Part shown: piece by piece, positions 26,908 through 28,266 of the stretch
Layout: each line of letters starts with the position of its first letter
How positions within the stretch are numbered: the first letter of the stretch is position 1
From: a virus
Taxonomy: Duplodnaviria > Caudoviricetes
DNA: 64,000 nucleotides
Virus record (IMG/VR): IMGVR_UViG_3300023048_000001
Coordinates: 110,627-174,626 of that record
Reading direction: 5' to 3' (one strand)
Notes under the pieces: generated by a model
Databases searched by the model: none
What the model saw: only the letters and a program-made list of their open reading frames with translations
What the model was told of the DNA's origin: nothing
Translations under genes and position numbers: made by a program

Positions 26908-26984
26908 TGGTATCGCTGACGGGATTCGAACCCGCATTATCTAGAATGAGAATCTAGTGTCCTGACCAGTTAGACGACATCGAT
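26908..26984 (-). tRNA. tRNA-Glu(CTC)
   Basis: Cloverleaf, loop TT-CTC-AT, CCA; one acceptor mismatch. Confidence 0.88.
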
Positions 26985-26988
26985 ATAA

Positions 26989-27297
26989 TTATTTATTTAA
27001 CAAACGATCAATGAATTTATTTGCTAGTAGCTCATGAATCTCTTCATAAGGATGAAAGACAACGGCTACAACCCAACGCTCATTTAGATTTGTTTTCTTG
27101 TTGTAAACTACAGCCTGTATGTAACAGGAATCATGTTTACGATATATGTTATCTACTTCACATGCTTCAAGGAGGTAATTGTCACTCCAACGCTTAATAA
27201 ATTCGATTTCAAGAATATCTTCAATCTTTTCCACTGAAATATCAATGGGATCACCATCGACAAAACCGGGTATATGCTGTAGTACGCGAATGCTCAT
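26989..27297 (-). CDS. hypothetical protein
   Basis: 102 aa, RBS. Confidence 0.7.
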   Translation of the reverse strand: MSIRVLQHIPGFVDGDPIDISVEKIEDILEIEFIKRWSDNYLLEACEVDNIYRKHDSCYIQAVVYNKKTNLNERWVVAVVFHPYEEIHELLANKFIDRLLNK

Positions 27298-27322: not shown

Positions 27323-28170
27323 CGGGCTGAGAATAGACCCTGACACGTTGATACTTTAGTTTGGATTATGGCATCTTGCGGATGCTTTCCCACTTTTCCA
27401 CTACAACCATCCTTCCGAATGCATCATAGTATATCAACATAGCAGCCTTATTTAAGTGGTGGCATTTCCACTGTCACCGTAACCTATTCGGCATGTCCTA
27501 TTCAGTCTGCCTTGCGAGCAGCAAAGGGTTCGACCCCATCCTTGCAATTCTTTACCAACATTCATCGGCCTTGCGAGCTTCCGAATGACTCTATTGTCTT
27601 ACGACTAGAGCATTATGCTATTTTCAGTTACGACCGAATCCGTCTTTGCGTTTTTTCAAGGTTGGATTTGAACCAACGTATGATCGTTTAAGAGACGATT
27701 GCTTATCCACTAAGCTACTAGTTATCCCACTAAGGTCGAGCGGATTCATAGGTCCATACCCTTTTGGGGTACAAAATTCTATCCGACCTCATCTGCTTCT
27801 CACCCGCTAAGGTTACACTCGCAGTTCGTTTCACGACTCTTTCAAGCCATTAACAATGTATAAACGCATTCGTCCGCTAAGACTCACACCCTCATACTAC
27901 CAATTCATCATCCACTGGTTCAACGTTAGACCGGCTAGAGGTTTCTATTCCTCTCATCACTCACCGATTGGCCTGTGATGGTTTTAACCGCATTGAATTC
28001 CAATATATCTCCGAAAGCTTCCGAAGCCAGAGCGTTCCACTCTGTGATATGTTGGCTTTTATAAACGAGTCCATTTTCATGGTGGGACGCTGGTAGGCGC
28101 ATTCCCGTTTGACACCTCACGGTATCTTATCTCTCCCTCATAACCCTTTCGAATTATGAGGTACTACACA
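27323..28170 (-). ncRNA. giant structured ncRNA, GOLLD-like
   Basis: ~850 nt without a credible ORF, own promoter, many GNRA-capped stems, embedded tRNA, located in a tRNA cluster; family call from memory of GOLLD architecture. Confidence 0.65.
27654..27724 (-). tRNA. embedded tRNA-Lys(CTT)-like domain with disrupted acceptor stem
   Basis: D-arm GCTT/AAGC, ATCGT-CTCTTAA-ACGAT, GTTGG-TTCAAAT-CCAAC; no good acceptor stem or CCA. Confidence 0.7.
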
Positions 28171-28222
28171 TACGTTATTCCTTTAACGTTTCGTTCCTCT
28201 AAGTGGGAACTCATCAGTGTGT
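28166..28222 (-). ncRNA. type I hammerhead ribozyme
   Basis: ACACA-CUGAUGA-GUUCC/GGAAC-GAAA-CGUUA/UAACG-UA-UGUGU; full core, GUA cleavage triplet. Confidence 0.92.
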
Positions 28223-28237
28223 GACTTGATGTAGAAC

Positions 28238-28266
28238 ATATTAAAGTGTTTAACTATTCCTGTCAA
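28238..28266 (-). promoter_or_regulatory. sigma70-type promoter for hammerhead/GOLLD-like transcript
   Basis: TTGACA-N17-TAATAT. Confidence 0.8.

Follow-up and report, generated by a model that had tools for sequence, protein, structure and literature searches.

GOLLD has been known since 2009 as a giant non-coding RNA, and we know of no function for it. The env-38 GOLLD, as published, is 833 nt long (420 + 413 nt). Cryo-EM showed that GOLLD forms a 14-mer RNA cage in which the 5′ domains are tightly packed caps, self-assembly into this cage being known for env-38 GOLLD alone (bioRxiv 10.1101/2024.12.08.627333). The bacterial and phage type I hammerhead ribozymes of RF00163 (PMC3088659) have the same core as the ribozyme described here, a junction that is open at stem I and an NUH triplet. 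They also use a loop II pseudoknot as a tertiary contact, and those of phages are presumed to process long transcripts. A pseudoknot is used by about 40% of known hammerheads and is required for fast cleavage (Perreault et al. 2011, PMC3088659).

The window analyzed here is a stretch of 64 kb, the last part of a 174.6-kb IMG/VR virus contig with an estimated completeness of about 50%, whose source is probably a jumbo phage. It encodes a GOLLD RNA on the minus strand. The 3′ domain (RF02032; 27324..27791, minus strand) matches the full Rfam model (positions 1–416) with 201.8 bits against a gathering threshold of 150, and contains a nested tRNA-like element (27724–27653, minus strand; tRNA match of 47.5 bits). 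This element is one of 15 tRNA matches in the window, and the GOLLD region lies within a dense tRNA array on the same strand. A 5′ domain of 379 nt (27792..28170, minus strand), which falls outside the Rfam model, was delineated from an alignment of 5′ domains (A7), in which 28 of 39 predicted pairs show compensatory changes. From the predicted cut site described below to the end of the GOLLD model, the RNA measures 847 nt (28170–27324). The assignment to GOLLD is based on the score of the 3′ domain, on the phage setting beside tRNA genes, and on length, GOLLD RNAs having about 800 nt in all and some 400 nt in their variable 5′ domain. The locus thus resembles RF02032 GOLLD in its full-length 3′ domain, its length of about 850 nt, its position in a tRNA island, the tRNA-like insert nested within it and the divergence of its 5′ domain, but it differs in having its own type of 5′ domain and an obligatory hammerhead in front. 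Contigs from RNA libraries (four libraries from four studies, 85–99% alike) cover only positions 27445–27980; such contigs cannot show RNA ends, and DNA carry-over is possible.

The hammerhead comprises 57 nt (28166..28222, minus strand), and the GOLLD match of Rfam lies 379 nt downstream of it. It was recognized from the sequence and by a motif scanner, scores 49.5 bits with model R2, and is further supported by covariation and by its minimum-energy fold. Stem I (5 bp) is formed by ACACA (28222–28218) and UGUGU (28170–28166), with the core CUGAUGA at 28217–28211. Stem II (5 bp) consists of GUUCC (28210–28206) and GGAAC (28197–28193), capped by the 8-nt loop II, CACUUAGA (28205–28198). G12, A13 and A14 correspond to 28192–28190, where GAAA is present, and are followed by the 6-bp stem III (ACGUUA, 28189–28184, with UAACGU, 28177–28172), which includes the A15.1–U16.1 pair. 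The window copy has every element of the canonical core: C3 U4 G5 A6 N7 G8 A9, G12 A13 A14, A15.1–U16.1, and a residue other than G at H17. Because both open ends are in stem I, the hammerhead is of type I. The register of the core places A17 at 28171, and self-cleavage is predicted at the GUA triplet, between 28171 and 28170 (28170..28171, minus strand). The first-pass annotation had proposed a complete type I hammerhead here, and both a direct reading of the minus strand and the motif scanner found it to be correct in its coordinates, type and cleavage site.

The minimum-energy structure of the isolated 57 nt is the hammerhead. When the predicted 10-nt leader is included, the minimum-energy fold has CAUCA of the leader paired with the core's UGAUG and lacks stem I, at −13.8 kcal/mol with the leader versus −11.7 kcal/mol for the 57-nt hammerhead without it, in models that ignore tertiary contacts. 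The folding z-scores were unremarkable (−0.6 to −1.6). The Rfam hammerhead models made no call in the window, either at the gathering threshold or with E-values up to 10, the sole match being one of 16.9 bits to RF00008 (threshold 48.5). This was given little weight, because the Rfam models also miss near-perfect relatives, among them the copy at L086:3336–3389. The homologue at L195:1027–1073 does rise above the RF00163 threshold (40.4 bits vs 34).

BLAST with the GOLLD region identified the Xanthomonas phages X1, BUDD and XacN1 and the Sinorhizobium phage Phosso. Alignment of X1 and BUDD to the window revealed a homologous hammerhead in the same place, and that of XacN1 was recovered by model R2. 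The copies in these three phages have bulges and long inserts in stem III, and in the XacN1 copy A9 and stem II are also separated by two additional nucleotides. A first, strict scanner and the single-sequence model R1 missed all three; a tolerant scanner and model R2 were used instead. Pattern scans covered IMG/VR, GTDB genomes and JGI metagenomes, with the matches filtered for real stems. Further hammerhead–GOLLD loci are L086, L130, L134/L047, L136, L137, L146, L184, L195, L214, L225 and L247, of which L146 is a MAG contig labelled Rhodoferax, while about ten others are metagenomic phage contigs. (L219 and L086 are one contig, and the hammerhead sequence of L253 is identical to that of L137.) The order promoter, hammerhead, GOLLD is found in at least 14 further lineages, and the distance from the cut to position 1 of the Rfam GOLLD model is 366–396 nt wherever the 3′ domain could be located, with 379 nt in the window. 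One additional contig, L192, carries a hammerhead and the start of a 5′ domain, followed about 95 nt later by tRNA matches and the contig end, and was left out of the verified set.

Several candidates were discarded along the way. L135 and L138, which had the pattern of a hammerhead plus GOLLD start, failed the stem test and were taken as chance matches. A scan with the 5′-domain motif CGTGAGGTGTCRAAMGG gave real matches only in the window and L086, its other matches being in coding sequence; a scan with GCTCGACCTTAGTGGG was useful only for L130, while L131–L133 were chance matches in coding sequence. A MAFFT alignment of the hammerheads was misaligned and was not used.

In alignment A8, which comprises 18 hammerheads and, like the other covariation alignments, was fitted to the model, a procedure that favours the structure, pairing holds in 95.3% of the stem cells, and in 13 of the 15 pairs both sides have changed. 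None of 500 shuffles scored as high, and partners slid out of register were 25–38% paired. Alignment A6, fitted in the same way, has compensatory changes in 12 of 15 pairs. We considered the possibility that the motif resembles the hammerhead consensus only by chance. The loose pattern (stems of 4, 3 and 3 bp) occurred in 84 of 400 shuffled windows, or about one in five, and most matches to a strict sequence pattern failed the stem test and were taken as chance (genome_contigs, 43 of 44; metagenome_contigs, 64 of 72). However, the scanner found exactly one match in the 64-kb window, the motif with all three stems of at least 5 bp occurred in only 1 of 400 dinucleotide shuffles, and the tolerant scanner found no matches on the antisense strands of 121 loci. 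At least 15 lineages share the position, and their copies show compensatory changes. In our judgement, these comparative data refute a chance match, to which we give next to no credence.

A genuine hammerhead fold could still be catalytically dead, either retained as a three-way junction that contributes structure to the mature giant RNA or decaying as a relic. The predicted hairpin between leader and core, which competes with stem I, would fit such a reading, as would the XacN1 copy, with its two extra nucleotides and a score of only 17.6 bits. Nevertheless, the catalytic core is invariant across the 18 copies except at N7 (U, A or C) and H17 (A or C), as the family permits, while the stems and loops change freely. 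This is the pattern expected from selection for catalysis rather than for a mere junction. The homology between GOLLD RNAs also starts only after the cut site. We therefore regard a dead junction as very improbable, and consider it likely, on comparative grounds, that the GOLLD gene begins with a functional type I hammerhead that acts in cis.

The first-pass annotation had suggested a pseudoknot, here a possible tertiary contact, between ACUU in loop II (28204–28201) and AAGU in the 5′ tail (28224..28227, minus strand), based on their complementarity. In the window this pairing is only 4 bp long and is not significant alone; single-sequence shuffles were not significant for any individual sequence. 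Complementarity between the tail and loop II, with differing sequences, is also present in L086, X1, XacN1, L137, L184, L192, L214 and L225, the pairings in other lineages including CUGUC/GACAG, CGUCC/GGACG, CGGU/ACCG, CGGGA/UCCCG, CAGC/GCUG, CAAGGC/GCCUUG and CAAGCC/GGCUUG. The partner of loop II in three other cases is UAGCA(A) on the 3′ side of stem I, so that there are two modes of pairing, with the 5′ tail or with a 3′ extension. Loop II complementarity of at least 4 bp was found in 9 of 10 cognate combinations, compared to 25% of non-cognate ones (binomial P = 3e-5). The support for the suggested pseudoknot thus comes from the comparison across lineages, the window itself contributing 4 bp. 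Such a contact would correspond to the pseudoknot described by Perreault et al. 2011.

A sigma-70-type promoter, TTGACA-17-TAATAT (28238..28266, minus strand), precedes the hammerhead and matches the consensus at 10 of 12 positions. Stem I begins 15 nt after the −10 hexamer and about 8–10 nt after the likely start site, which, from the consensus only, is expected near 28232–28230. In 9 of the 10 lineages examined, a promoter-like site precedes the hammerhead by 5–28 nt, with 10 of 12 consensus matches in three of them (the window, XacN1 and L137). With a promoter directly upstream of the ribozyme, many transcripts should start there. This bears on the alternative that an active hammerhead acts mainly as an insulator, which frees GOLLD from read-through of upstream tRNA and small-RNA genes rather than trimming the leader of its own promoter. 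The surroundings are favorable to insulation: the hammerhead is located within a same-strand tRNA gene array, there is no terminator-like site on the minus strand from 28500 to 28240, tRNA-Val ends about 68 nt upstream in X1 and BUDD, and further hammerheads lie directly behind tRNA-Gln genes in L134, L195 and L225. Moreover, hammerheads have been proposed to process long phage transcripts (Perreault et al. 2011, PMC3088659). Given the recurrent promoter, we consider it doubtful, but a possibility to be taken seriously, that insulation is the main role. Insulation and leader removal are compatible and give the same product. In a different tRNA context, phage hammerheads are also placed to cut exactly 5′ of G−1 of tRNA-His.

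Whichever role predominates, the cut site coincides with the start of GOLLD itself. Eight GOLLD 5′ domains align from the first column of A7, which is the first nucleotide after the cut. RNAalifold predicts a helix, P1, in which nucleotides 3–8 of the cleavage product (GUNUAG) pair with CUANAC about 105 nt downstream. P1 shows compensatory changes (GUAUAG/CUAUAC and GUUUAG/CUAAAC, and GUUUGA/UCAAAC in XacN1). In the window, the predicted P1 of the 5′ domain (28060..28168, minus strand; 28168–28164 with 28064–28060) has 5 bp, two of them G–U pairs. Its 5′ strand shares 3 nt (28168–28166) with stem I of the hammerhead, so the two helices cannot coexist, which suggests a strand exchange from stem I to P1 following cleavage. 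The idea in the first-pass annotation that the position of the hammerhead allows it to define where the giant RNA begins was thus strengthened by the conserved order in at least 14 lineages, the covariation, and the start of homology at the cut. With this layout conserved in at least 14 lineages besides that of the window, the hammerhead very probably makes the exact front end of GOLLD.

From these comparisons we infer catalytic activity, an order of folding, the strand exchange and a reason for a trimmed or 5′-OH end, which can be combined as follows. Transcription would start about 8–10 nt upstream of stem I, or else read through from the upstream tRNA and small-RNA genes. The 57-nt ribozyme would fold first, aided by the pseudoknot between loop II and the 5′ tail. 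Hammerhead cleavage leaves a 5′-OH on the downstream product and a 2′,3′-cyclic phosphate on the upstream fragment. A cut after A28171 would therefore release a leader-plus-ribozyme fragment of about 60 nt with a 2′,3′-cyclic phosphate, and the remaining RNA of about 847 nt (28170–27324) would begin with a 5′-OH at U28170. The freed 5′ nucleotides would pass out of the 5-bp stem I and into GOLLD helix P1 with the strand about 105 nt downstream. P1 formation would make the release irreversible and place the mature end just 2 nt ahead of the first helix. The net effect would be an exact, leaderless 5′ end, whichever promoter is used. Several reasons for selection are compatible with the data: a leaderless end may be needed for packing of the 5′-domain caps, the cut may make GOLLD independent of the transcription start and of upstream tRNA read-through, or it may alter RNA decay.

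The ends themselves could also be what matters. A 5′-OH and a cyclic phosphate are the substrate pair of RtcB, and this is the logic of viroid-like RNAs and retrozymes. An RtcB-type ligase might thus join the 5′-OH of GOLLD to a 2′,3′-cyclic phosphate to give a circular or sealed GOLLD. In two cases a second type I hammerhead does lie directly after the GOLLD 3′ end, at L086:3336–3389 (72.5 bits) and on the L134/L047 contig at L047:761–813 (55 bits), and double cleavage would yield GOLLD plus ribozyme with a 5′-OH and a cyclic phosphate. However, there is no second hammerhead in the window or in most lineages, and a covariance model made from related copies found none in the 174.6-kb contig. 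In L086 and L047, the second ribozyme precedes another conserved RNA and may simply make the 5′ end of that RNA. Neither RtcB (PF01139) nor T4 Rnl1 (PF09511) was found in the contig, which is about 50% complete; the host could supply RtcB, and the Rnl1 result is uninformative, since the control search with PF09511 matched 0 of 14 named control genomes. Circular or spliced products around phage hammerheads have been sought, and none were found (Perreault et al. 2011, PMC3088659). Ligation is therefore quite improbable as the purpose of the cut, and formation of the GOLLD front end by the hammerhead remains the preferred reading.

The first-pass annotation had also called for a survey of GOLLD upstream regions, and the answer was mixed: hammerheads occur in at least 14 other lineages, but are absent at about 115 loci. 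An unbiased sample of 118 IMG/VR GOLLD loci was collected via a 3′-domain motif; for 95 of them, the upstream sequence extended over 900 nt or more. Of the 118, only two (L086 and the L047/L134 contig), or roughly 2%, have a hammerhead, and none was found upstream of the approximately 115 others. Phage Phosso has a promoter and no ribozyme. GOLLD as a class therefore does not need a hammerhead. The hammerhead-led GOLLD RNAs are instead a distinct subclass in phages of Proteobacteria, unlike env-38 GOLLD, for which the structure is known and which is found downstream of tRNA-Met. A single narrow motif for the 5′-domain type was tried and matched three loci, all of them with a hammerhead, and every clade member that came from hammerhead-independent searches has one as well. 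By blastn, the 5′ domains were too divergent for defining the subclass.

For this subclass, a first nucleotide set by a ribozyme would give the natural mature 5′ end of GOLLD and predicts that it carries a 5′-OH. Conservation of the ribozyme suggests that the absence of a leader is important for folding or assembly. The cultured Xanthomonas phages X1, BUDD and XacN1 carry the module unannotated, which makes the genetics of GOLLD processing and function tractable. Together with the hammerheads at G−1 of tRNA-His, the module suggests that phage RNA islands repeatedly use ribozymes to form RNA ends. A broader and rather unlikely extension is that hammerheads are general, host-RNase-independent makers of 5′ ends in the RNA islands of jumbo phages (GOLLD, tRNA-His with G−1, and at least one conserved RNA behind GOLLD), and that the 5′-OH itself is required for closing of the cage, for escape from 5′-end-dependent decay or, in lineages whose second hammerhead would provide a cyclic phosphate, for RtcB-type sealing or circularization.

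The hammerhead and GOLLD were each already known; the novelty lies in the fixed, conserved coupling of the two and in the overlap between stem I and P1. The first-pass annotation had considered the coupling undescribed, and a full-text search of an open-access library likewise found no paper on it. Known phage hammerheads flank protein-coding genes of varying identity, whereas the ribozyme in the window is fixed to the first nucleotide of a giant non-coding RNA. It also differs from them in being directly behind a promoter and in having a stem I that shares nucleotides with the first helix of GOLLD. The hammerheads on both sides of GOLLD in L086 and L134/L047 resemble the double hammerheads of viroid-like satellites and retrozymes, but there are no tandem repeats or evidence of circles, and the window has the upstream ribozyme only. 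The long, functional RNAs of the retrotransposons R2 and L1Tc begin with self-cleaving, HDV-like ribozymes, which free the 5′ end from the upstream co-transcript. These ribozymes belong to another class, cut at their own 5′ edge and stay on the product, whereas the type I hammerhead in the window would cut at its 3′ side and be discarded. In RiboJ insulators and in the 5′ hammerhead cassettes of in vitro transcripts, a promoter-proximal hammerhead removes a variable leader to leave one defined 5′-OH end with any promoter. Those devices are synthetic, while the GOLLD hammerhead would be natural, conserved and dedicated to a structural RNA, and thus a natural counterpart of the promoter-insulating hammerheads of synthetic biology.

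The leader of the window GOLLD transcript, the short 5' segment between the promoter start site and stem I of the hammerhead, contains a CAUCA sequence (28227–28231) complementary to UGAUG in the hammerhead core (28212–28216, both on the minus strand). When the predicted leader was attached for fold prediction, the pairing between these two elements was part of the minimum-energy fold, at −13.8 kcal/mol. The pairing could represent either a misfold or a switch governed by the position of transcription start.

Downstream of the window GOLLD lies an ORF of 102 aa (26989–27297, minus strand), preceded by a GGAAG ribosome-binding site; its start is 27 nt from the GOLLD 3' end. The sole Pfam match of this ORF was a weak one to HMUDK_hel (18.9 bits, under its cut-off). 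No terminator was found between the GOLLD 3' end and the ORF, and given this absence and the short spacing, GOLLD may be co-transcribed with the ORF and the tRNA at 26984–26911. Parts of the GOLLD body (27445–27980) were covered by contigs, 85–99% alike, that come from four metatranscriptome libraries belonging to four studies, with soil and mine drainage as sources. Because such contigs may reflect DNA carry-over, this is only a weak hint that close relatives are transcribed.

On a 340-kb phage contig (L130:2805–3503), where GOLLD scored 149.7 bits, about 760 nt split the first hairpin of the GOLLD 3' domain. The insertion carries a 232-aa ORF with a match to phage endonuclease families (phrog_15427, E = 4e-9), and looks like a homing-endonuclease-type element within the GOLLD gene. 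Another contig (L192:2520–2841) has a hammerhead followed by the initial ≈95 nt of a 5' domain of the GOLLD type; two tRNA matches come directly behind, and the contig then stops. The arrangement may represent a GOLLD whose 5' domain has tRNAs nested in it, or a truncated copy.

At two GOLLD loci, a second, near-perfect type I hammerhead (L086:3336–3389 and L047:761–813) starts 0–9 nt after the GOLLD 3' end. Past the cut, both loci have a common motif, GACCUUUCUGYGUA ... CAGCGGCGA, which suggests that the second hammerhead would form the 5' end of a further conserved RNA or leader. Additional type II and type III candidates, with stems of 5–9 bp and none adjoining GOLLD, are present on GOLLD-bearing phage contigs (L086:862, L014:9123, L029:9318, L031:4929, L033:14150, L095:139, L119:12939 and L113:5005). 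On several phage contigs, tmRNA genes of the two-piece (permuted) betaproteobacterial type are also present, no more than a few kb from the hammerhead–GOLLD module (L002:284–703, L086:10134–10572, L195:2652–3047, L225:6183–6679 and L192:2102–2325).

Hammerheads also occur beside tRNA genes. One lies behind a tRNA-Gln (L225:3574–3626), with no tRNA called downstream of it. In two lineages, a similar hammerhead, of type I, is located between tRNA-Gln and tRNA-His (L134:1433–1507 and L195:1198–1272, minus strand), and the start of tRNA-His doubles as the 3' strand of stem I. The predicted GUC cut lies exactly on the 5' side of G-1; thus, tRNA-His would receive its unusual additional 5' G from the ribozyme, with no need for RNase P.
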